59,299 bases of DNA from Candidatus Woesebacteria bacterium GW2011_GWB1_33_38 (lineage in GTDB: Bacteria; Patescibacteriota; Microgenomatia; UBA8517). The stretch lies in NCBI GenBank assembly GCA_000990005.1, contig LBPF01000004.1, forward strand, positions 1 through 59,299. Direction: 5' to 3'. How positions within the stretch are numbered: the first letter of the stretch is position 1; each line of letters begins with the position of its first letter. The translations under genes were made by a program, and so were the position numbers. The notes under the pieces were generated by a model. The model did not search any database, had not been told where the DNA came from, and saw only the letters and a program-made list of their open reading frames with translations. Below are positions 5,247 through 59,299 of this stretch, one piece after another.

Positions 5247-5338
5247 TGGCGGTGAGGGTGGGATTCGAACCCACGACAGCCAAAAATGACTGTATTAGTT
5301 TTCAAGACTAACCTGATCGACCACTCCAGCACCTCACC
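5247..5338 (-). tRNA. tRNA-Ser(UGA), CCA encoded
   Basis: Reverse complement reads GGTGAGG..anticodon loop CTTGAAA..long variable arm..GGGTTCGAATCCCAC CCTCACC G CCA. Confidence 0.85.
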
Positions 5339-5363
5339 GTTTTTATATAACTCTAGTAATTTG

Positions 5364-5449
5364 CGGAGGATACAGGGGTCGAACCTGTCCGACGCAATTA
5401 AGCGTCAAAGTTTAGCAAACTTTTCCCTGAACCGTTCGGGATATCCTCC
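5364..5449 (-). tRNA. tRNA-Ser(GCU)
   Basis: Reverse complement reads GGAGGAT..anticodon loop TTGCTAA..long variable arm..ACAGGTTCGACCCCTGT ATCCTCC G. Confidence 0.8.
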
Positions 5450-6438
5450 TTGTATCTCAATAATCTAAAGTTGCTTGATCCAACAATATTAAAGTAATCT
5501 ATTACTGAGGCTTTATTATACAGCCAAATGCGTTCACCTGCCACACTTGGATGCAAATTTAATTCATCTAGAGTTTTTGTTACAAAATTTAGTAAAGGTT
5601 TTGATCTATTAGCAAAACATGGGTTTAAATATGTATAACTTTTAGACTTGTATTTATGAGTACATCTTGATATGCAACCGTCTGTATCCATTAGCCCTCT
5701 TAGGCATGCGATTTTGTATTCAATTGAGCCCATTATCCACATAGGCACACTTACTTGTTGCTTTACCTTATCGCCCTTTTTAAGGCCAATTTTTAATAAA
5801 TAATTTATTAGATTAATTCCGCTATATCTTAAATTTGTAGCTTTACAATCTTTTCTTGGAGCTATTTTTGGTTTTTGTCCAAAAAGAGTTTTACCTAAAT
5901 TGGCAACATACTTTATATATTTCTTGTCAGCAACTGTATTTAGTGTCACTGTTGCTTGTTCTTTTGTAATTCCACCATCTCCTAACATGATTCCAACAAA
6001 TTCTGCCAGCCTTATTGATTTTTTTGGATACAAATAAGGCTTGGAACACCATGCGGCTAGACCTCTCTTTCTAAGAATTTGTAAAGCATTATGGCCACCT
6101 TTCCTTCTTCCTTCCGGAGTACTGAAATTTCCATAAATTTTATATCTTGCTTTTGCACCGATTCTACAAGTTTCGCTTCTTAAATTTTGCCAATTTATTT
6201 TTAATTGCTCTAAATTATTAGGTAAAATAATGTCATGTTTGTTGCATAGAATTTTTACAGCATTCTCTGTTATGTTATATTTTTCTCTTTTCCAGTCTCG
6301 AATCGTTCTAGGTGAAACATTTACCAGTCTTGAAAATTTTATGGAATCTAAATTAGATTTTTGAAGTGCACTTTCTAAAAATTTTCTTTGTTCTCCCTTC
6401 GGAAATTTAATTCTACTATCGCTATATTTAGATGGCAT
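5398..6438 (-). CDS. LAGLIDADG-type homing-endonuclease-like protein with N-terminal HTH
   Basis: Two LAGLIDADG-like motifs (LAEFVGIMLGDGGI, LRGLMDTDGCI). The last 52 nt run antisense into tRNA-Ser(GCU). Confidence 0.65.
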   Translation of the reverse strand: MPSKYSDSRIKFPKGEQRKFLESALQKSNLDSIKFSRLVNVSPRTIRDWKREKYNITENAVKILCNKHDIILPNNLEQLKINWQNLRSETCRIGAKARYKIYGNFSTPEGRRKGGHNALQILRKRGLAAWCSKPYLYPKKSIRLAEFVGIMLGDGGITKEQATVTLNTVADKKYIKYVANLGKTLFGQKPKIAPRKDCKATNLRYSGINLINYLLKIGLKKGDKVKQQVSVPMWIMGSIEYKIACLRGLMDTDGCISRCTHKYKSKSYTYLNPCFANRSKPLLNFVTKTLDELNLHPSVAGERIWLYNKASVIDYFNIVGSSNFRLLRYKEDIPNGSGKSLLNFDA

Positions 6439-6513: not shown

Positions 6514-7035
6514 ATGGATCCTGCCAAAGAACAACAACAAGAAAATAGCTCTTTAAAACCTGAATTAGAAAAAGATCTTGTAACTTGGGTAGCTCCCGCA
6601 AGACCATTTAAAAGAAGAGATAAACAGTTTTATTTAACCACAATATCAATTGCTGGAATAGTTTGTTTGATTTTATTCTTAGCTGAGGGAGCTATGCCAG
6701 TAATTTTAATAGTCTCTTTAATTTTTCTCTATTATGTTATGAGTACTGTAGCTCCAGAGGATATTGAGTATAAAATTACAAATAAAGGAATTAAAGTTGG
6801 AGGTAGAACAACAAATTGGCAATTTTTAGGTAGGTTTTGGTTTGGAAAAAGGTATGATAGTGAACTTTTAATAGTGGAGACAGCGTTTATACCTAATAGA
6901 ATGGAGCTAGTCATAAAATCTGAAGTTAAAGAAGAAATAAAGGAAAATTTAAAAAAATATCTAATTGAAGAAGAAATTTCTCCATCAAAATTAGATAAAG
7001 CAATAGACTGGTTTAGTAAAAAATTACCCAATTAA
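6514..7035 (+). CDS. hypothetical membrane protein
   Basis: ORF with two adjacent TM helices. No recognisable motif. Confidence 0.45.
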   Translation: MDPAKEQQQENSSLKPELEKDLVTWVAPARPFKRRDKQFYLTTISIAGIVCLILFLAEGAMPVILIVSLIFLYYVMSTVAPEDIEYKITNKGIKVGGRTTNWQFLGRFWFGKRYDSELLIVETAFIPNRMELVIKSEVKEEIKENLKKYLIEEEISPSKLDKAIDWFSKKLPN

Positions 7036-7055
7036 AAGTTATAAAATAATATATT

Positions 7056-7127
7056 GCCCTCGTAGCTCAACGGATAGAGCACTGGTTTGCGGAATCAGAA
7101 ATATCAGTCCGATTCTGATCGAGGGCA
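7056..7127 (+). tRNA. tRNA-Arg(GCG)
   Basis: GCCCTCG acceptor, anticodon stem CTGGT/ATCAG, loop TTGCGGA. The T-loop TCCGATT is unusual. Confidence 0.75.
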
Positions 7128-7131
7128 CATT

Positions 7132-7213
7132 GGAGGATTGGTAGAACGGTAATACGCGGGTTTCGAAAACCCGTGGGAGTAATCCCAAGTAGGTTCGACT
7201 CCTACATCCTCCG
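7132..7213 (+). tRNA. tRNA-Ser(CGA)
   Basis: GGAGGAT acceptor, anticodon loop TTCGAAA, long variable arm, GTAGGTTCGACTCCTAC T-arm. Confidence 0.8.
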
Positions 7214-7240
7214 CTTTTCTGGTACAATACACGTAAAGTT

Positions 7241-7693
7241 ATGAAAAACAATAACGGTGAAATACTAATTGGTGGGGCAGTTATTTTTAAAGAAGGAAGA
7301 GGAAAAAATCATTTTTTACTTTCAAAAAATAATGAAGGTGAGTGGGAAATATTAAAGTCTACAGTTAGAAGGGGAGAGTCTTCAGTTAGGGCTGTAATTA
7401 GATTTACTTCAGAACAGGGAAATATGAATACTAGAGTTTTAGATGAAGTAGGTAGGGGAACTGGTGCAGGAACAGTTGGAAACAAAAGTGTAACTTTTAA
7501 ATATATTTATTACCTTATGTTGTATAAAACAGGTGCTGAAATAATGGGTATAGGAGAACACGCTTGGTTTGATTATGCTGGAAGCTTAAAGAAACTTAAA
7601 TTAAAAAGAGAAAAAGATATGTTAAAAACAGCAAATGGAATGATTAAAGAATGGGAAAAGAAAAGAAAATCCTCAAAAAGACCAAACTCCTGA
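7241..7693 (+). CDS. NUDIX-like protein (degenerate Nudix box)
   Basis: GGAVIF...GEWEILKSTVRRGESSVRAVIRFTSEQG loosely fits GX5EX7REUXEEXG. Confidence 0.35.
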   Translation: MKNNNGEILIGGAVIFKEGRGKNHFLLSKNNEGEWEILKSTVRRGESSVRAVIRFTSEQGNMNTRVLDEVGRGTGAGTVGNKSVTFKYIYYLMLYKTGAEIMGIGEHAWFDYAGSLKKLKLKREKDMLKTANGMIKEWEKKRKSSKRPNS

Positions 7694-7718
7694 TATAATT
7701 GCCTCAGTCTAATAAAAT

Positions 7719-7734
7719 ATGGAGGAGTCGGATA
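7719..7734 (+). repeat. 16-nt direct repeat: duplicated 5' end of tRNA-Ser(GGA)
   Basis: ATGGAGGAGTCGGATA occurs at 7719-7734 and again at 7782-7797, where it is the start of the intact tRNA. Confidence 0.9.
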
Positions 7735-7783
7735 AGTAAACTTGCAACCCAGTTGTAAGCATAGCTTGTCCTTACCCTCACAT

Positions 7784-7867
7784 GGAGGAGTCGGATAGTG
7801 GTTCATTCCACAGACTTGGAAAGTCTGCGGCTTAACAGCCTCGCGAGTTCGAATCTCGCCTCCTCCG
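7784..7867 (+). tRNA. tRNA-Ser(GGA)
   Basis: GGAGGAG acceptor, anticodon loop TTGGAAA, long variable arm, GCGAGTTCGAATCTCGC T-arm, CTCCTCC G. Confidence 0.85.
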
Positions 7868-9361
7868 CTTTGCAAATAATGAGCGTGTCGCAAAATATGG
7901 CGAGTTTTGCGCACGCTCGGAACAGGCCGTATTGTAGCCCAGTTTGTAATCTGTTTGGAGCGAATTACCTTCTAAAATGAAGTTCGAGCCGACACTTTTT
8001 GCAAAAGAGCGAAGCTCTTCTGCAACTACATTTTTTGCCGCGATTTTTCTAGCCTGAAAGGCTCGCAACATGAAGTTTTCGAAAGGTTCGAGCCAAAGTC
8101 CACCCTTTTCTTTTAGAACAGCGATTTTCTCTGCGATTTTTTGTTTTTCCTCAAAAATCTCATTCTTCTTTAGTTTATAAACTTCGGGGTCAATATCTCC
8201 TGAAATATAACCGTCGGTTAATCTACTAACTTTAAGGTCTTGTAATTTTATTTCGTTTTCAAAATTGTGAGATTTTTGAGAGACAAGTTTTGTCTCTAGC
8301 TTTTTATCTTCCTCAAACCACTTTTTCCAATCACTTTGCCAAGAAGAAGGCAAGGCAACTGCCGAAATTATCCTTTTAATCTCACTTTTGAGATTATCTT
8401 CAGAAATATACTTTTGACTGCACTTACCTAACTTTTTAGTACAACGATAGTAGGTATAGTCAGCACACCTATCAGTACCTTTGTAATATTTATGATGAAT
8501 TTCGGCAGTTATTGCAGCTCCACATTCCGCGCATCTGGCCAGTCCTGTAAAGGCAAACCTGTGTCCATCAGTTCTAGGTTTTTCTATCTTTTTGATTTCA
8601 GATTGAACAGAGTCAAACAATTCTTTGGGTATAAAACACTTATGCGTTCCTTTATACCACTCACCTTTATAGAAAAACTGACCCATATAGAATTTGTTAG
8701 TTAAAGTTCTTCTAATCCTTGTTAAGTCTAAAGGTTTGCCTTTACCTCCAAAAACTTTATTCGAAGCAAGGTATCTTGATATTTTCACAAAAGACTTTTC
8801 ATTTAAGAATAGGGTAAAACAGTTACTCACCAATTTAGATAGCTTTTTATCAATTACTATGTTGTGAGTAACTGGGTGATTTTTATACCCAAATGGAGCT
8901 TTTAGAGGCCAGATGCCCAAGCGCAATTTTTGCCTAATACCTCTTTTTACATTTTCACTTAAATTATCTACATAATATTTTCCTTGGGAAAAGGCGATTG
9001 AAAGCATGAATTTACCTTGTGGGGTATTATCAAACCAAAAAGTGGGGAATTTTAAATCAACTATTTTCCCAATATCTAAAAAGTAGATAATTTTGCCTCC
9101 GTCAACTGAATTTCTAGCAAGTCTATCGGCGTGCCATGACAAAATTGCGTTTGCCTTGCCTTCTTCAATGCTTTTAAGCATTGAATTAAACTTTTCTCTT
9201 CCAGGTTCTTTGGCAGTTTTTGACTCTGTAATAATTTCAGTTACAAAAAGGTTATTGCTCTTGGCAAATTCCTTTAGTTCTGCAACTTGTGACTCAATAG
9301 ACAAAACTTGCTTTGTGGCTTCGTCAGTTGACTTACGGCAGTAGATTATGTATTTGTCCAT
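7832..9361 (-). CDS. large serine recombinase (resolvase catalytic domain + recombinase domain + zinc ribbon)
   Basis: N-terminus YCRKSTDE..SIESQ carries the catalytic Ser region. CxxC...C cluster (ARCAECGAAITAE...YYRCTKK) and a coiled-coil tail. The ORF runs through IR1 into antisense tRNA-Ser(GGA). Confidence 0.85.
   Translation of the reverse strand: MDKYIIYCRKSTDEATKQVLSIESQVAELKEFAKSNNLFVTEIITESKTAKEPGREKFNSMLKSIEEGKANAILSWHADRLARNSVDGGKIIYFLDIGKIVDLKFPTFWFDNTPQGKFMLSIAFSQGKYYVDNLSENVKRGIRQKLRLGIWPLKAPFGYKNHPVTHNIVIDKKLSKLVSNCFTLFLNEKSFVKISRYLASNKVFGGKGKPLDLTRIRRTLTNKFYMGQFFYKGEWYKGTHKCFIPKELFDSVQSEIKKIEKPRTDGHRFAFTGLARCAECGAAITAEIHHKYYKGTDRCADYTYYRCTKKLGKCSQKYISEDNLKSEIKRIISAVALPSSWQSDWKKWFEEDKKLETKLVSQKSHNFENEIKLQDLKVSRLTDGYISGDIDPEVYKLKKNEIFEEKQKIAEKIAVLKEKGGLWLEPFENFMLRAFQARKIAAKNVVAEELRSFAKSVGSNFILEGNSLQTDYKLGYNTACSERAQNSPYFATRSLFAKRRRRDSNSRGC
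7865..7964. repeat. IR1 left copy (100 bp)
   Basis: Reverse complement of 9434..9533 with a single mismatch (7957). Contains an imperfect dyad, 7881-7895/7905-7918. Confidence 0.9.
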
Positions 9362-9389
9362 ACTTTAGTCCTCTCAAGGCAAGGCCTTG

Positions 9390-9418
9390 AAAAACATTTT
9401 GCATTTTTTTATATTTTC
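9390..9418. repeat. IR3 left copy (29 bp)
   Basis: GAAAAACATTTTGCATTTTTTTATATTTTC is the reverse complement of 9650..9678. Confidence 0.8.
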
Positions 9419-9433
9419 TTTCTTTTTAGTTGT

Positions 9434-9533
9434 TTCGCTCAAAACAGATTACAAACTGGGCTACAATACGGCCTGTTCCGAGCGTGCGCAAAACTCGCCA
9501 TATTTTGCGACACGCTCATTATTTGCAAAGCGG
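9434..9533. repeat. IR1 right copy (100 bp, inverted)
   Basis: Checked base by base against 7865..7964. Confidence 0.9.
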
Positions 9534-9604
9534 GCGTTATACAAAAAAATTCGAACTCAATTTCAAACTCAATGACTCGGACCGCTCCGGCTCGGCCTTT
9601 GGCC
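9530..9604. repeat. IR2 left copy (75 bp)
   Basis: Perfect reverse complement of 10830..10904. Weaker similarity continues about 15 bp further (CCTTCCGCGTA versus CCTCCGCGTA). Confidence 0.9.
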
Positions 9605-9649
9605 GAAGCCTTCCGCGTAAAGTGTCGGCTCGAACATCGCCGTTAGGCG

Positions 9650-9678
9650 AGAAAATATAAAAAAATGCAAAATGTTTT
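9650..9678. repeat. IR3 right copy (29 bp)
   Basis: GAAAATATAAAAAAATGCAAAATGTTTTT, inverted copy of 9390..9418. Confidence 0.8.
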
Positions 9679-9767
9679 TAACGTTCTAGTGTTCTTCTTT
9701 AAATTTATTCCATGTAAATAATTTTTCAATAGCCAAATTTAAACCAAAACTGTCTTTGTAGCTATTA

Positions 9768-10760
9768 TTGTCTTTTTTTGCTAGAATTCACGCAATTATG
9801 ACGATTGAGATAACATTGCCAATAAATACTGATACAGAACCGAAAACTGTTGGCAGATTGGCAAACATATTAAACAATTTCAGGCAAGCAAATAAATTTG
9901 GTGGCACAAGTTATGGATTTTTTTATCTAACAAACGAATGTAACTATGCTTGTGACATGTGTTATATGGATTCAAAGCCAGGACTTAAAAATACTCGATT
10001 AAATCCAGAACTTTCAAAAGGAATAATGCGTGAATTTCAAGGAATTGATGAAATTATAATTTCAGGTGGTGAGATAACGATACTTCCGTATTTTGTTGAA
10101 CAAATACAAACTGCAGCTGAAGTTGCTGGTTTTGTAACTGTCTTTACAAACGGAACAGGTTTTGTTGATAGATCGGTTCTAAGACAAACTGAAGATAATT
10201 TTGAAGCAATCCGAGACGCTGTAAAGTTAGGTATGGAAGAAAAGCTACAAAATATACCATCAAATGTTGAGATCACTATTCCAGCAACTGCATATCATCT
10301 AGTCTCGGATTCGGCTCATAAAGCACATAAATACCATGAAGCGATTGTTACAGCCAGTGCAACTTTGGCTCGAGAATGGTTTGATAGGAATGATAGACCA
10401 AAAATTAGATTTATTGCTAAAAATACCCCAGGACAGCCAAATTCAGGACAAGAAATTATTGATCGCTTTGGAATACAAGGTTTAGGGTCAACAGGTGCCG
10501 CTTTTCCTGGGGGTATTTCCAAAAACGGCAGAGGGGCATCAATTATGGAAGCAAGAAACCCATCTGAGGTTATATCTAAAATCGAGGGAGGTATTCACAT
10601 AAATCATCAAGGCGTTTTTGCCAATGAGCCGTCTTTGCTTCAAAAACTACATTTAAATAATGTTACTCCAGGAGAAATTTGTTCAATAGAATCAAGTACA
10701 TCTGTTGAAGAAGTCGTAAATTCGGTCGCGAGTTTTGTTGAAAGAGTCAGAGAAACTTAA
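9768..10760 (+). CDS. radical SAM domain protein (function unknown); start may be ATG 9798
   Basis: CNYACDMCY (CX3CX2C cluster) followed by the IIISGGEITILP SAM-binding-like motif. Confidence 0.65.
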   Translation: MSFFARIHAIMTIEITLPINTDTEPKTVGRLANILNNFRQANKFGGTSYGFFYLTNECNYACDMCYMDSKPGLKNTRLNPELSKGIMREFQGIDEIIISGGEITILPYFVEQIQTAAEVAGFVTVFTNGTGFVDRSVLRQTEDNFEAIRDAVKLGMEEKLQNIPSNVEITIPATAYHLVSDSAHKAHKYHEAIVTASATLAREWFDRNDRPKIRFIAKNTPGQPNSGQEIIDRFGIQGLGSTGAAFPGGISKNGRGASIMEARNPSEVISKIEGGIHINHQGVFANEPSLLQKLHLNNVTPGEICSIESSTSVEEVVNSVASFVERVRET

Positions 10761-10775
10761 TTTTAAGTGTCTCTG

Positions 10776-10792
10776 GTCGAGCTGTGCTCGAC
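10776..10792 (+). terminator. hairpin downstream of the radical SAM gene
   Basis: GTCGAGC-TGT-GCTCGAC followed by TTTAAAAA. The T-run is weak. Confidence 0.35.
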
Positions 10793-10829
10793 TTTAAAAA
10801 TCGCGTTCAAAAAATGTACGCGGAGGCGA

Positions 10830-10904
10830 GGCCAAAGGCCGAGCCGGAGCGGTCCGAGTCATTGAGTTTGAAATTGAGTTCGAATTTTTTTGTATAACGC
10901 CCGC
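10830..10904. repeat. IR2 right copy (75 bp)
   Basis: Perfect inverted copy of 9530..9604. It ends 1 nt before the ATG of the EEP gene. Confidence 0.9.
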
Positions 10905-11639
10905 ATGAAAATAATATTTTTAAATTGTTGGCAAGGAAAAGTTTGGGATAATCTATCTACTTTTTTGAAGAAACAAGAAAAAGACACAGACACCTTTTGC
11001 TTTGTTGAGGTTTCTCCAAAATTACATTCCAAATTCTCTGATTTATTGATCGGATTTAATGGTGTCTATGAATCAGAAAAACTAAAAGGATTGGATGGAA
11101 TTGAATATGGACAGTCTGTTTTTGTTCGAACAGGATTTGATATTCAAGAAAGTAAGAAAATATCATTATATAAAAATCTATCCAACGACATTGGATTTAT
11201 GCAAGTTGTAGATATTCAAATTAATGACAAGAGTTTGTTGATTGCAAATATTCATGGGATGTCAAATCCTGGGGATAAACTAGATACACTTTTTCGTCTC
11301 AAACAATCAAAAATAATTATTAAACATTTCATTCAAAAATTAAAAAGACCAATAATAATTACCGGCGACTTTAATCTGTTACCTGATACCAAATCTATAA
11401 AACTTTTTGAAAAAGCAGATTACAGGAATTTAATAAAAGAATTTAAAATAAAATCGACAAGAAACAAAATTGCTTGGCAACATTTTAAAAATGACCCAAA
11501 TTTTGTAAAGCAATACTATGCAGATTATTGTTTTGTTTCAAAAGACATAAAAGTAAAAAATTTTACTGTTCCGGACATTGAAATTTCCGACCACCTGCCA
11601 CTAATTTTGGAGTTTGAGATTCACCCCCACACCAATTAA
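10905..11639 (+). CDS. endonuclease/exonuclease/phosphatase (EEP) family protein
   Basis: MKIIFLNCWQG N-terminus and C-terminal ISDHLPLILEF motif. Start taken at ATG 10905. Confidence 0.65.
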   Translation: MKIIFLNCWQGKVWDNLSTFLKKQEKDTDTFCFVEVSPKLHSKFSDLLIGFNGVYESEKLKGLDGIEYGQSVFVRTGFDIQESKKISLYKNLSNDIGFMQVVDIQINDKSLLIANIHGMSNPGDKLDTLFRLKQSKIIIKHFIQKLKRPIIITGDFNLLPDTKSIKLFEKADYRNLIKEFKIKSTRNKIAWQHFKNDPNFVKQYYADYCFVSKDIKVKNFTVPDIEISDHLPLILEFEIHPHTN

Positions 11640-11654
11640 TATGTATTTAGAATT

Positions 11655-11912
11655 ATGTTTTATGTTTATGTACTAAAAAGTTTAAAAGACAAATTATTAT
11701 ATACAGGTTCAACAAATGATTTGAGACGAAGGTTCAAGGAACATAATTCTGGTAAAATATATTCAACAAGGTTGAGAAAACCATTTATTCTTATATACTA
11801 CGAAGCATACAATGATGAGAAGGATGCTAGAATGAGAGAACATAACTTAAAATTAAGAAGTAGAGCTTTTGCTCAGCTGAAAAAACGAATGGAAAGGAGC
11901 CTTAGGGCATAA
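11655..11912 (+). CDS. GIY-YIG nuclease superfamily protein
   Basis: FYVYVLKS...LYTGSTNDLRRRFKEHN is the GIY-YIG signature. Confidence 0.75.
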   Translation: MFYVYVLKSLKDKLLYTGSTNDLRRRFKEHNSGKIYSTRLRKPFILIYYEAYNDEKDARMREHNLKLRSRAFAQLKKRMERSLRA

Positions 11913-14908: not shown

Positions 14909-14917
14909 AACAGATGT

Positions 14918-14946
14918 ATTCTAAGTTGTGTGTGTGTGGATGTCAA
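14918..14946 (-). promoter_or_regulatory. TTGACA-N17[(CA)n]-TAGAAT promoter, leaderless spacing
   Basis: Minus strand reads TTGACAtccacacacacacaactTAGAATacatctgttATG. Confidence 0.6.
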
Positions 14947-14967
14947 TAGATGTGTATAATTTATGAT

Positions 14968-27329: not shown

Positions 27330-27336
27330 GAGTGGT

Positions 27337-27365
27337 ATTCTAGTCTGTGTGTGTGTGAATGTCAA
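27337..27365 (-). promoter_or_regulatory. TTGACA-N17[(CA)7]-TAGAAT promoter
   Basis: Minus strand reads TTGACAttcacacacacacagacTAGAATaccactcATG. Confidence 0.6.
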
Positions 27366-27428
27366 TACAAAGCTGATATCTAAAATAATGTAACTTGACA
27401 AAGTAATGAGGTATATTATAATAATGTA

Positions 27429-41762: not shown

Positions 41763-41769
41763 GGTCAGC

Positions 41770-41798
41770 AGTATAGCCAGCGTGTGTGTGAATGTCAA
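41770..41798 (-). promoter_or_regulatory. TTGACA-N17[(CA)4]-TATACT promoter
   Basis: Minus strand reads TTGACAttcacacacacgctggcTATACTgctgaccATG. Confidence 0.5.
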
Positions 41799-41855
41799 GA
41801 CTATGGGCGTTTTTTAGGAGTCTGTAAGGGTCGGACCTTTTTACAGATTTCTCTT

Positions 41856-58029: not shown

Positions 58030-58100
58030 GGGTGTGTCGTTCATCGGTAGGACGGTACTCTTATAAAGTATCAAGGATGGTTCGACTCCATCCACACCCA
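58030..58100 (+). tRNA. tRNA-Ile(UAU)
   Basis: GGGTGTG acceptor, D stem GTTC/GGAC, anticodon stem GTACT/AGTAT, loop CTTATAA, T-arm GATGGTTCGACTCCATC. Confidence 0.75.
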
Positions 58101-59198
58101 CAGAAATGGATTTTCCGGCGAGTCGGGAATGGCGCTCGCCGCGCCCGCCCCCGTGGCGAGCGCTGCAAAGCCCAGTTTATATACGCAAAAAAGCCGCCGA
58201 TTAGAAACAAGGTAGTCCGAGCCGACTTTTTTGGCGAAGAATGATAATTCTTCGCCATTATGTTTCGCGCGCGCGATTTTGGCCGCATCAGCGGCCACTT
58301 CTACAAATTCCCTCATTAGTCCGAGCCATTCACTTCCGTTTTTGGAAACACTTGCCATTTTCTCCTTCAATCTGATTTTTAGTTCCATTAATTCGTTTTT
58401 CTTTTGTTGATAGACTTGGGGATCAACTATCTGGTCGAGATAGCCTTCAAGTAACCGATCAAGTTTTTTGTCTATTTCTTGAACTTCGGAAGAAAATTTT
58501 GTAACTTGATTTTCACTATTTGTTTTTTCTTCCGTTTCCTCTTTATCAAGTCTTTCTATCCACAGTTTAGTCCACGAAGTGGGCAGGCTGGCTTTTTCAA
58601 CAATTGCTCGCAATTGTTGCTCTAAAAGTTCTTCCCGCAGATAATTTTGTGAACAATCGGTTTTCTTTTTGGTACAGCGATAGTAGATGTAATCCACATT
58701 TCCCCTCGTTGTTGGATAGCATTTGTGTTTGACTTCGGCGGTGATGGCACAGCCACATTTAGCGCACTTGGCCAATCCCAGAAAAGCAAAGTTGTGCTTT
58801 TTGTTTTTAGGATGTTCTCTTGCCTCGAGAATTTTCTGAATTTTTCCAAACAACTCTGGGGGAATAAACAGTTTATGAGTCCCTTCGTAGGTTTCACCTC
58901 CGAAGTTGATTATGCCAACGTAAAACTTGTTGCTTATAATCCTCTTTACCGTATCAAGGTGAAGCATTTTACCGTTGTATCTGGTAATGCCAAACTTTTG
59001 AAAAAATCGAGAAATGTTAGCAATAGAGCTTTCGCCTTCGGCGAAAAGCTCAAATGCTTTTTTGACGATTTTTGATTTTACCGGATCAATTTCGATTGTT
59101 CGTAATCTCGGCTCGTTGAAATATCCGTACGGCGCTTTATTAGGTAAAATTCCTTTTCGCAGTTTTTGCCGATTGCCTCGTTTTACATTTTCGGACAA
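58071..59198 (-). pseudogene. 5'-truncated large serine recombinase (lacks catalytic domain)
   Basis: Homologous to residues ~134-end of 7832..9361 (LSENVKRGNRQKL..., CAKCGCAITAE, YYRCTKK). An in-frame TAA lies just upstream of the homology. The 3' end runs antisense into tRNA-Ile. Confidence 0.7.
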
Positions 59199-59299
59199 AT
59201 TCAGGACTTACGCATTTTGACAAACTATAAGTTGGTGGTTTAAACTTTGTGGTAAGAATGGTGGTGATATAAAAAGTGGGGATAAAATGCAATAAAGAG

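Follow-up and report, generated by a model that had tools for sequence, protein, structure and literature searches.

The window, i.e., the entire 59,299-nt stretch of contig LBPF01000004.1 from Candidatus Woesebacteria bacterium GW2011_GWB1_33_38, carries a small integrative element at positions 7865-10904. On its left lies a tRNA-Ser(GGA) gene on the plus strand (7784-7867, found by ARAGORN and Rfam), whose 3' end represents the left (B-type) half of the target. The minus strand encodes a large serine recombinase (LSR), 509 aa long in its integrated form (7832-9361), with the Pfam domains Resolvase, Recombinase, and Zn_ribbon_recom (PF00239 with an E-value of 5.8e-20, PF07508, and PF13408). 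Its Y-C-R-K-S-T-D-E motif, including the serine, is invariant in 14 aligned recombinases, the G-S-N of motif M (see below) is invariant in the recombinase alignment A1, and a coiled-coil-like stretch was read by eye in the C-terminal part. The cargo gene on the plus strand (9798-10760; PF04055), present as a 320-aa gene call in L179 and L180, encodes a radical-SAM-family protein. The element terminates with its outer arm B at the right junction B|host, and a host exo/endonuclease-phosphatase gene (Pfam) begins at 10905.

Between the LSR gene and the cargo, a repeat search of the window revealed a unit composed of both element ends. Positions 9434-9533 (arm A') are the reverse complement of the outer arm A (7865-7964) with 99 of 100 nt identical; the lone mismatch, 9441 versus 7957, is located 7 nt from the arm edge. 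Positions 9530-9604 (arm B') are the reverse complement of the outer arm B (10830-10904) over all 75 nt. The arms share a 4-nt overlap (CCGC/GCGG), the crossover core, which is found at 9530-9533 within the unit and at 7865-7868 at the left junction tRNA|A, where it consists of tRNA positions 71-73 plus one base. The first-pass annotation had described the 171 bp at 9434-9604 as the joined element ends in inverted orientation, in full agreement with both alignments: inside the element lies its own recombination joint (attP = B|A), intact and in inverted orientation.

This joint is bracketed by a further inverted repeat, which is 30 bp long (9390-9419 and 9650-9679) rather than 29 bp as first reported; its arms are 100% complementary, and the left one lies 28 nt upstream of the recombinase ATG. 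Adjoining arm B', positions 9619-9635 on the plus strand carry a copy (M') of motif M (AAAGTGTCGGCTCGAAC), which encodes KSVGSN in the recombinase (7982-7998, minus strand). The match, put forward earlier as a C-terminal recombinase fragment (AKSVGSN), is an exact inverse over 17 nt and extends to 29 nt at 83%; 0.01 chance matches with up to three mismatches are expected in the window, and the copy occupies the same position in family loci. A supposed third remnant in the outer flank of arm B (10775-10829) amounts to a weak similarity to the flank of the internal unit. Here, 23 nt (10796-10818) form an inverted repeat with the recombinase codons KIAAKNV (8027-8048), scored over 18 nt at 83%, with the extent of homology being our own reading. 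All repeats described in the first pass were recovered, exactly or with a shift of 1-2 nt.

In the window, the element sits at the 3' end of tRNA-Ser(GGA); that such elements are genuinely integrated follows from locus L001, an unrelated contig whose recombinase is 92% identical and which combines the same layout with another cargo and another target. The L001 contig contains three uninterrupted copies of this target, and the element ends are exactly its two halves. For the window, the empty-site form implied by the insertion is tRNA|ATGAAAATAAT; no empty target site was found for its own population among the contigs examined. In 96 family loci the recombinase 3' end adjoins a tRNA gene on the opposite strand. 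Crossover overlaps in 28 family loci range from 2 to 11 nt, mostly 4-5 nt, with 2 nt in L025 and L028; there is short identity at the crossover and no long target duplication.

The half-sites reveal how the tRNA end is recognized. In 72 loci, GGTTCGA is found at 20-14 in the tRNA half and GTTCGA at ~24-18 in half B; in the window, the outer arm B carries GTTCGAA together with a GC hairpin. Half B is thus a mimic of the tRNA T-arm whose distance from the core exceeds that in the tRNA itself by 4-5 bp, which corresponds to the spacing of P-type versus B-type LSR sites. For LSRs, the outer (DBD2) motif is known to lie 4-5 bp further out in attP than in attB half-sites (PMC11722253). The right halves depart from this rule: half A has a conserved inner motif and a variable, mostly short-spaced outer one, and the host half is unconserved. 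Sibling elements insert at the occupied junction tRNA|A (L132, L157, and L089) and give rise to tandem arrays; the junction stays a competent target for incoming siblings, as seen in L132.

The outer arm A is coding, as shown by its in-frame conservation across the family: it comprises the last ~33 recombinase codons before the crossover on the minus strand. The crossover sits 12-14 codons ahead of the native stop, and in the integrated form the frame reads on beyond arm A and into the tRNA, so that the protein acquires the tail ...KRRRRDSNSRGC. Since the crossover lies within the recombinase frame, integration swaps the native C-terminal tail for tRNA antisense; the integrated-form protein ends in RRRRDSNSRGC, the native form in ALYKKIRTQFQTQ, and the integrated-form tails of family recombinases are translated tRNA antisense. 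The native tail motif x-Y/F-E-K-I-R-T-x-F is conserved in the family. By an automatic count, 47 of 49 loci agree in the reading frame of the B' motif TTCGAAC; the remaining two are mis-hits, whose tails are likewise in frame. Between the GSN codons and TTCGAAC only the distances 112, 121, 133, 142, and 145 occur, each equal to 1 modulo 3.

As integration replaces the native tail, the internal unit also stores an intact 3' end of the gene (...FAKRALYKKIRTQFQTQ*), which amounts to the last ~45 recombinase codons; half-site logos were computed as well. A stand-alone small gene for this C-terminal peptide was rejected, with 22 of 50 loci devoid of an in-frame start and ATG present in just three. 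Neither the crossover within the frame, nor the targeting of tRNA 3' ends via the T-arm mimic, nor the sharing of the internal joint across the whole family was part of the first-pass annotation, which overlooked them.

The stored 3' end could mean that the unit works as a switch, in which the inverted 3' exon plus attP reactivates the recombinase. RecA would flip the 1.5-kb recombinase segment through the A arms, or the recombinase itself would do so by recombining tRNA|A with the internal joint; a rare inversion of this kind would restore the native tail and a full-length gene with the element still in place. Re-mobilisation would thereby come under control, and the element could leave its site independently of a directionality factor, as a self-repairing 'suicidal' integrase built from a gene-altering programmed inversion. 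Such a device would fit the conserved in-frame tail, its inverted storage beside the gene together with ~33 upstream codons, and the recombination competence of tRNA|A. Moreover, integrases altered by their own integration are known: the Mx8 integrase (PMC6070905) and the SSV-type integrases (PMC7253208). We nevertheless consider a switch, the main rival of the reading preferred below, unlikely. It leaves the bracketing arms, M', and the 100-nt B arm unaccounted for, the importance of the 12-14-residue tail for activity is an assumption, and the isomers that it predicts failed to appear, as detailed below.

The arrangement is reproducible in the population from which the window stems. Samples of the Rifle aquifer, for example ERZ909590, ERZ27254732, and JGI 3300025308, contain this population. 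Nine independent contigs, which were built by several assemblers from several samples, match the part of window positions 7000-11700 that they cover at 99.98-100% identity; they reveal the same arrangement, and the same single arm A mismatch wherever both copies of this arm are covered. A single arrangement was likewise seen in all 10 places listed of the 23 contigs carrying P0033. Repeats of this kind often coincide with contig breaks, which might suggest that the internal unit is an assembly artefact or the oddity of one contig; given its recurrence in the population and an equal architecture in ~100 unrelated loci from two collections, the chance of this is negligible. Flipped or excised forms were found in none of >20 contigs of the window's population, and the exact protein predicted for the flipped form of the recombinase is absent from a collection of 15 billion proteins.

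The recombinase has >6000 homologues at E<=1e-10 in the protein collection. No relatives above 57% identity were present in GTDB representative genomes or JGI metagenome contigs; close relatives were obtained from ENA contigs via a protein index. Among 100 related loci with enough flank, whose recombinases are 43-57% identical, 96 contain the internal copy, measured as the A pair, which has a median identity of 97.5% over a median of 103 nt. The B pair was detected in 50 of the 65 loci having at least 3 kb upstream (median 99%, 108 nt), and loci devoid of a detectable outer B keep an intact internal B|A. This persistence led us to reject two independent cassettes with palindromic attP sites (A'|A and B|B'); a recombinase-only module was not found either.

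Nearly all family members thus share the layout host|B'-cargo-[arm-M-B|A-arm]-recombinase-A'|tRNA, in which the recombinase gene is enclosed by the A/A' repeats and the cargo by the B'/B repeats. Equivalents of the bracketing arms are found family-wide, with sequences that covary from subgroup to subgroup, and M' follows the codons of each element's own recombinase. Several element copies per small CPR genome are found. The LSR family, in CPR/Patescibacteria, is large, tRNA-targeting, and apparently undescribed; the literature searched gave no account of it, nor of an internal attP in serine-integrase elements.

Canonically, serine integrases convert attP and attB into attL and attR, such that the integrated element retains no attP. 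In the window and in 96 of 100 family loci, an intact attP is nevertheless present inside the integrated element; the family, with its >6000 proteins, breaks this rule in a conserved way. The first-pass annotation had proposed comparing homologous elements, and they do carry the internal inverted unit. Its alternative, the scar of a head-to-head dimer or of a nested insertion, has to be rejected because the copy is family-wide and ~98% identical to the element's own ends. Judged from these comparisons, the internal copy is a conserved feature built into the family and not a scar.

Arms are more similar within an element than between elements, with 98.1% versus 84.6% identity over 231 element pairs and this pattern in 225 of them, and such concerted evolution shows that conversion is active. 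One might therefore regard the unit as a neutral relic: the 3' end of the recombinase gene would have been duplicated in inverted orientation in an ancestor, and the copy would persist only via gene conversion with the element ends, as simple recombination cannot lose inverted repeats. The lone mismatch of the window, 7 nt from the arm edge, is where conversion tracts predict it, and some loci contain decayed arms at 74-90% identity. However, the unit is retained in 96% of loci at 43-92% protein identity, in elements down to ~3 kb and in streamlined genomes; its position, its orientation, and the order of its sub-motifs are conserved, and the bracketing arms and M' covary even though they lie outside tracts long enough for conversion. 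A relic is hence very unlikely in our judgement.

Isomers were sought in two unbiased scans. Among ~115 classified loci, 96 were in the integrated form and zero were flipped; coexistence of both orientations was seen neither in the scans nor in the assembled contigs of the window's population. Three contigs, L175, L176, and L177, do have the flipped layout that a switch predicts. All three start exactly at a repeat boundary, and two have 2-3x coverage. De Bruijn assemblers yield such contigs when a unique segment joins one repeat at both ends. Having this assembler-type form, the three contigs were discarded as evidence, and inversion is not accepted as demonstrated. Segment inversion, as suggested in the first pass, is chemically possible, but the only contigs that look like it are of the assembler type. 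In L178, the inverted repeat passes through the core, and the contig begins there.

The orientation of the joints is equally uniform. In each of the ~60 loci that allow a judgement, integration has split the joint at the recombinase 3' end; a split internal joint was seen in none of them, and the bracketing arms always adjoin the internal B, never the outer B. These observations speak against the earlier suggestion that the element integrates in either orientation. In contrast, its companion, that an excised circle would carry two inverted attP-like joints, follows from an intact inverted attP within a truly integrated element, and contig L173 is consistent with such a two-joint circle.

It would be conceivable that the internal joint, a complete site of correct geometry, is a spare functional attP: the circle could integrate via either joint, or the joint could be a landing pad for siblings or for tRNA-bearing circles. 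L173 is compatible with this, and the most plausible reading of L174 is that one element has entered the internal joint of a sibling, which leaves the hybrid joints A2'|B' and A1'|B3'. This putative nested insertion was encountered once. Secondary insertions normally take place at tRNA|A, and the predicted doubly flipped isomer, or a bracketing arm beside the outer B, is absent in ~60 loci. A spare integration site thus seems improbable as the purpose of the unit. However, the apparent insertion in L174 suggests that the internal site is not absolutely inert.

Transcription and cargo were inspected for hints at a function in place. In the window, the cargo is transcribed away from the internal unit, and across the family 80% of the cargo coding sequence is divergent from the recombinase. 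The cargo itself is highly variable: L001, although 92% related, has an entirely different one, singletons make up 96 of the 143 cargo proteins, and no cargo gene is common to all members, hence none that would be a conserved directionality factor. A 70-90-aa gene with an XRE-type helix-turn-helix, which is a candidate regulator, occurs in 17 of 52 cargos, usually beside the unit. In none of 58 loci was a sigma70-like site found between the unit and the recombinase ATG, while 14 of the 58 possess such a site upstream of the unit and oriented towards the recombinase. In the window, the only good promoter matches point inward and remain at the level of shuffled controls, with the reservation that the consensus may not fit CPR bacteria; a role of the bracketing arms as simple outward promoters is accordingly not supported. 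Rfam reports three tRNAs and no known RNA family in the unit, and RNAalifold gave no consensus structure on 38 aligned units in a gap-rich alignment.

We tentatively regard the unit (9390-9679) as a selected, built-in component of an LSR-driven integrative element. Our main reading, to which we assign a probability of roughly 40%, is that it acts as a control site which does not recombine and belongs to the leader of the recombinase. The internal copy would work in place, without recombining, between the divergent recombinase and cargo genes, and would most likely be part of the 5' leader of the recombinase. Binding of the recombinase would act there as an autoregulatory roadblock or as a decoy; the unit would also, if transcribed, match the 3' end of the recombinase mRNA in antisense orientation. 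Gene conversion would keep the copies alike. The inverted orientation would be the sole stable one, because, with a direct copy, homologous recombination would remove the recombinase or the cargo.

Several observations stand against a control site. A plain operator needs neither near-perfect identity over ~200 nt nor the coding part of arm A, and an LSR dimer at the core would be ~100 nt away from either bracketing arm. Since tRNA|A is still competent (L132), the internal joint should recombine with it, which was not seen; the nested insertion in L174 suggests that the site is not wholly inert; the promoter scans of the window stay within their shuffled controls; and no consensus RNA structure emerged from the gap-rich family alignment.

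Lack of a conserved candidate directionality gene, with cargo proteins that are mostly singletons, would also agree with a helper for excision in cis. As a pure inference, a dimer on the internal attP might engage the locked attL or attR complexes and stand in for a directionality factor, or pair unproductively with B|host and thereby hold the element. The SPbeta integrase has been seen to form tetramers on two attP sites (PMC11722253), yet the distance to attL ranges from 0.6 to >7 kb. Among the functional roles considered, we give this one the slimmest chance.

With the LSR integration modules of phiC31, Bxb1, A118, and SPbeta (SprA), the family shares the domain set Resolvase, Recombinase, and zinc ribbon, the short crossover without target duplication, and, in the left halves, a DBD2 motif that lies 4-5 bp further out on the element side than on the target side. 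It differs in that the target is the extreme 3' end of a tRNA gene, recognized through the T-loop sequence, that a strong outer motif is found in left halves only, that the crossover takes place within the recombinase frame, and that an intact inverted attP is kept inside the integrated element. Furthermore, there is no evident directionality-factor gene, and the occupied tRNA|A junction is still targeted, with tandem arrays as the result.

In the rewriting or splitting of the recombinase gene by integration, the family resembles Mx8 IntP and the 'suicidal' integrases of the SSV type. These are tyrosine recombinases, none of which is reported to retain an intact duplicate of its 3' end together with attP; in the present family, the loss is limited to a short tail and the enzyme is a serine recombinase, foreign to tyrosine chemistry, such that the resemblance is functional and confers no membership of that group.

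The res site of Tn3/gamma-delta offers a working analogy for the proposed control site, being a serine recombinase site between divergent genes. Binding of the small resolvase to the three dimer sites of res also represses both genes, and res is used for resolution. It differs from the unit described here in not being an inverted duplicate of the element ends.

Programmed inversions, i.e., Hin/Gin, shufflons, and gene-altering inversions, are similar insofar as inverted repeats flank a recombinase segment, as with hin. Also shared is the signature sought in PMC9881135, with one repeat in the 3' coding part of a gene and its partner in a silent partial copy. In contrast to these systems, both orientations are not seen here, the enzyme is an LSR, and the repeats are halves of an integration site. 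Finally, the predicted circle with two inverted sites and two unique segments recalls the yeast 2-micron plasmid (FLP/FRT). The latter is a replicating eukaryotic plasmid with a tyrosine recombinase, where flipping serves copy-number amplification; no replication function was seen in the present element.

Three unusual traits are thus combined in one family: recognition of the universal tRNA T-arm, a crossover within the recombinase gene, and an intact spare attP kept inverted beside this gene. Once its role is worked out, the spare site would reveal how integration and excision are controlled in an element that has no visible directionality factor, and knowing it would help to explain how mobile DNA moves in Patescibacteria. 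The family may also yield tRNA-directed or self-regulating integrases for genome engineering. As a side observation, the inverted repeats account for many contig breaks beside tRNA genes in CPR metagenome assemblies.

In the window, the element driven by a large serine recombinase (LSR) extends over 7865-10904. In plus-strand order, tRNA-Ser(GGA) (7784-7867) is followed by outer arm A (7865-7964), the LSR gene (9361 down to 7832, minus strand; 509 aa with Resolvase, Recombinase and zinc-ribbon domains), a left bracketing arm (9390-9419), the inverted joint A'/B' or internal unit (9434-9604), a copy (M') of motif M, the recombinase codons KSVGSN (9619-9635), a right bracketing arm (9650-9679), a radical-SAM-family cargo gene (9798-10760, plus strand) and outer arm B (10830-10904); a host exo/endonuclease-phosphatase gene has its ATG at 10905. 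Here, primes denote inverted copies, the joint B/A is the attP, and the slash marks the crossover. The recombinase frame passes through arm A and ends in the tRNA. The neighbours dnaG, rpoD and several tRNAs, together with 33% GC, mark the surrounding chromosome as CPR-type.

Direct reading of 7500-11200 and repeat searches recovered every repeat listed in the first-pass annotation. Positions 9434-9533 are the reverse complement of 7865-7964 (99/100 identical), 10830-10904 and 9530-9604 are reverse complements at 75/75, and arms A' and B' overlap by 4 nt (CCGC). The segment 7982-7998 has an exact inverse copy at 9619-9635, with a chance expectation of 0.01 (up to 3 mismatches, within the window). 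The inverted repeat framing the unit is likewise present and perfect, but measures 30 bp instead of 29 bp. The 59-kb window holds no other long inverted repeats than these.

Nine further contigs, derived from several samples with several assemblers, contain the same 4.7 kb and match the window at 99.98-100% identity wherever they cover it. All show the arrangement of the window and, wherever both copies are covered, the same single mismatch in arm A, 7 nt from the outer arm edge. For practical purposes this excludes an assembly artefact, to which we assign a very small probability. The internal unit is real, and it combines the recombinase 3' end with an intact attP in inverted orientation.

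The closest relative of the window recombinase (P0001, 92% identity) is located on contig L001, with the same layout in another genome context and with another cargo (an 81-aa protein). In L001, a 47-nt intergenic repeat occurs in three uninterrupted copies; a fourth copy is split, its two halves directly adjoining the element ends. The uninterrupted repeats thus provide an empty-site-like control and place the crossover at GCGG/CCGC. Judging from these target copies, the element is a true insertion. The targets are alike, …GACTCCGC/ACTGAAAAT… in L001 and …CCTCCGC/ATGAAAAT… in the window. The L001 target is a repeated host intergenic sequence of about 47-80 nt (501-547, 1170-1216, 5330-5376, also 5845-5891) which ends like a tRNA 3' end (…GACTCCGCA); ARAGORN calls no tRNA on the contig, and the 5845-5891 copy resembles a true tRNA 3' half.

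At E<=1e-10, over 6000 homologues of the window recombinase are known in the protein collection, nearly all of about 500-520 aa. Their hosts are Patescibacteria wherever the source names the organism, while some MAGs carry other labels. The comparison with homologous elements of other genomes, as proposed in the first-pass annotation, was based on two unbiased scans (GTDB representative genomes and JGI metagenome contigs) of 80 loci each, at 43-57% protein identity, with repeats found by self-comparison within each locus. Among the 100 loci with enough flank, 96 carry the A-pair inverted repeat (about 100 nt, median identity 97.5%), joining the recombinase 3' end to a position 30-100 nt ahead of the start codon. 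A B pair (about 108 nt, median identity 99%) begins directly beside it in 50 of the 65 loci whose upstream sequence reaches 3 kb or more; its partner site lies upstream at a further distance of 0.6 to more than 7 kb. The arms overlap by 2-11 nt, mostly 4-5, and an intact internal B/A is retained even in loci without detectable outer B. The internal joint is therefore a hallmark of the recombinase family. In 96 loci, outer A' abuts the 3' end of an opposite-strand tRNA gene; nearly every tRNA identity is represented, and database homologues have C-terminal tails translated from tRNA antisense sequence (GxEP and DSN types). The window contains a second family member near its right edge (58030-59207), where tblastn matches residues 131-474 at 43% identity on the minus strand (59207 down to 58173). 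This member adjoins tRNA-Ile(TAT) (58030-58101) and has an M-like motif at 58215-58231; the window stops before its internal-unit region. Five homologues (P0003, P0004, P0005, P0007, P0016) reach about 865-890 aa, almost double the usual length; possible causes are gene fusion, tandem recombinase genes or reading through a tandem array.

In the recombinase protein alignment, conservation takes in VGSNFFLxNRxLxxxYKxGF and, inside subgroups, reaches the crossover. When each frame was joined through A' into B', as an excised circle would read, the tail x-(Y/F)-E-(K/Q/N)-(I/V/C)-R-T-x-F appeared in every cleanly joined locus, with a stop 3-8 codons further on in most of them and longer tails in one subgroup. 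An automatic count placed the TTCGAAC motif of B' in one shared frame in 47/49 loci; the remaining two are regex mis-hits showing the same tail. Its distance from the GSN codons is only ever 112, 121, 133, 142 or 145 nt, all 1 mod 3. This conserved in-frame tail and spacing locate the native gene end 12-14 codons past the crossover. Upon integration the native tail is replaced, in the window from ...KRALYKKIRTQFQTQ to ...KRRRRDSNSRGC, and the internal unit thus represents an inverted spare copy of the last approximately 45 recombinase codons. The tyrosine integrases of Mx8 (PMC6070905) and of the 'suicidal' SSV type (PMC7253208) are known parallels, but a spare copy is reported for neither.

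Site geometry was deduced from logos of 72 non-redundant loci anchored at tRNA positions 71/72. The tRNA half-site shows GGTTCGA at 20-14 and TCC at 12-10, half B GTTCGA at about 24-18 and TTTTC at 15-11, and half A a conserved inner motif ATTTCC (15-10) with a variable, mostly short-spaced outer motif; the host half shows no conservation. The sites are thus asymmetric, with a single strong half each. By its motifs, half B is a T-arm mimic displaced by 4-5 bp, matching the displacement between attP-type and attB-type half-sites of serine integrases (PMC11722253). Locus L132 is a clean tandem array, host/B1'-cargo1-(B1/A1)-rec1-(A1'/B2')-cargo2-(B2/A2)-rec2-A2'/tRNA-Ser, so that an occupied tRNA/A junction is still usable by an incoming sibling element. 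J-like tails suggest such reuse in L157 and L089 too, while L174 is best read as one element apparently inserted into the internal joint of another, a nested or tandem case.

Even though tRNA/A remains reactive, the internal joint stays unused. In all of about 60 judgeable loci, a bracketing arm lies beside internal B and the recombinase 3' end points towards the tRNA; the isomer expected from integration via the internal joint was never seen in these loci, where the joints are identical over about 200 nt. The internal joint is not the integration site: what is split is in every case the identical joint at the gene 3' end. As an explanation, a spare attP or landing pad is improbable, and a helper in excision slightly less probable still. 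The main rival, though unlikely, is an inversion that re-attaches the native recombinase tail. It would account for an inverted duplicate of coding sequence adjoining the recombinase gene, yet it leaves bracketing arms and M' unexplained, and no reliable flipped molecule was found. Neither scan contains a flipped recombinase segment, the element of homologue P0033 shows one arrangement in 10/10 places shown of 23 contigs carrying it, the window's element has a single arrangement across all contigs examined, and its predicted flipped-form protein is missing from the protein collection. Joint-type tails occur in about 10 among the best 120 of the more than 6000 homologues, and six contigs with such tails (L173-L178) were examined. 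L173 (megahit, k=127, exceeding the arm length) reads arm-recombinase-A'/B'-outer flank-cargo-arm, which fits an excised circle broken in the second joint or a doubly flipped insertion. L175-L177, candidates for flipped segments, all start exactly at a repeat boundary, two of them with 2-3x coverage; they were discounted because a unique segment tied at both ends to one repeat node yields such contigs.

The arms evolve in concert. Across 231 element pairs, whose orthologous A arms are 75-96% identical, mean A arm identity is 98.1% within elements and 84.6% between orthologues, the former exceeding the latter in 225 pairs. Some process thus keeps the copies alike, most plausibly gene conversion, since site-specific exchange at the core would merely swap arms. 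Homogenisation can fail, as arms in some loci are only 74-90% identical. The tail of P0127, from the same 90% cluster as the window recombinase, is frameshifted (…NTACSELAIFCDTLIICKAEEARFELAR…) on one contig carrying a near-identical element, indicating a short deletion in the outer arm A hairpin, so that the A arms there are no longer identical. That the unit is a relic kept up by gene conversion is improbable.

In 38 aligned internal units, the order of parts is constant: bracketing arm, small hairpin, nearly invariant M' (GTTCGAGCCGAC), one or more GC-rich hairpins, GAAAT..GTTCGAATTTTTTCGTAAA, core, GGAAAT.., GC-rich hairpin, antisense of the RRLS…YKKGF codons, and a bracketing arm followed by the recombinase ATG. 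The bracketing arms are mutual inverted copies whose sequences change in a compensating way between subgroups (e.g., TGCGTTTT/AAAACGCA, TGCGGGGT/ACCCCGCA, GGGAAGCCCGC…/…GCGGGCTTCCC). M' tracks the codons of its own element's recombinase, wobble positions included (identity 16.6/21 to self, 14.4 to other elements, 11.5 for shuffled queries). The unit is conserved, homogenised with the element ends, and placed between divergent genes: 30,730 of 38,356 cargo coding residues lie on the strand opposite the recombinase, and cargo transcription runs away from the unit. None of 58 loci has a sigma70-like site (at least 9/12 matches) between unit and recombinase ATG, and 14/58 have such a site upstream of the unit and directed at the recombinase, under a consensus that may not fit CPR bacteria; in the window, matches are no more frequent than in shuffled controls. 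This placement hints that the unit sits in the recombinase leader.

Our best guess, with a probability of roughly 0.4, is that the internal unit acts in place as a non-recombined control element. The recombinase would bind it within its own leader, as a roadblock or decoy, and the unit, if transcribed, would be antisense to the recombinase mRNA 3' end. Such a control element agrees with the fixed orientation and position, the covariation of the arms, the tracking by M' and the absence of recombination products, although a simple operator would need no 200 nt of identity.

In a literature library with few subscription journals, we found neither the recombinase family nor an internal attP in serine-integrase elements described; recombinases and tRNA both go unmentioned in a study of horizontal transfer in Patescibacteria (PMC12455944). 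A serine-integrase element that targets the tRNA T-arm, has its attP within the recombinase frame and keeps a conserved inverted attP as a spare is, in our view, probably new.

Among the cargos, 17 of 52 non-redundant ones encode an XRE-type HTH protein of 70-90 aa, whose gene usually adjoins the internal unit; eleven such proteins fall in one cluster, its listed example being LexA-like by eye. The window's element has no HTH gene, and other cargo proteins are mostly singletons. A complete type I restriction-modification system (HsdS, HsdM, HsdR; L174, 10520-17542) and a BrnT/CopG toxin-antitoxin pair (L163, 1872-2418) occur among the cargo or neighbour genes, so that some family elements carry defence-type cargo.

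Elsewhere in the window, a 16-nt exact direct repeat ATGGAGGAGTCGGATA occurs at the 5' end of tRNA-Ser(GGA) (7782-7797) and 63 nt upstream (7719-7734), possibly left over from an earlier rearrangement there. A LAGLIDADG-type homing endonuclease ORF (346 aa, 5398-6438, minus strand) overlaps the end of tRNA-Ser(GCT) (5363-5449); its gene call is present in some same-population contigs and absent in others. A 33-nt repeat family, GTATTCTAAGTTGTGTGTGTGTGGATGTCAATA, has three copies spread across the window (14916-14948, 27335-27367, 41768-41800) with 70-100% identity.
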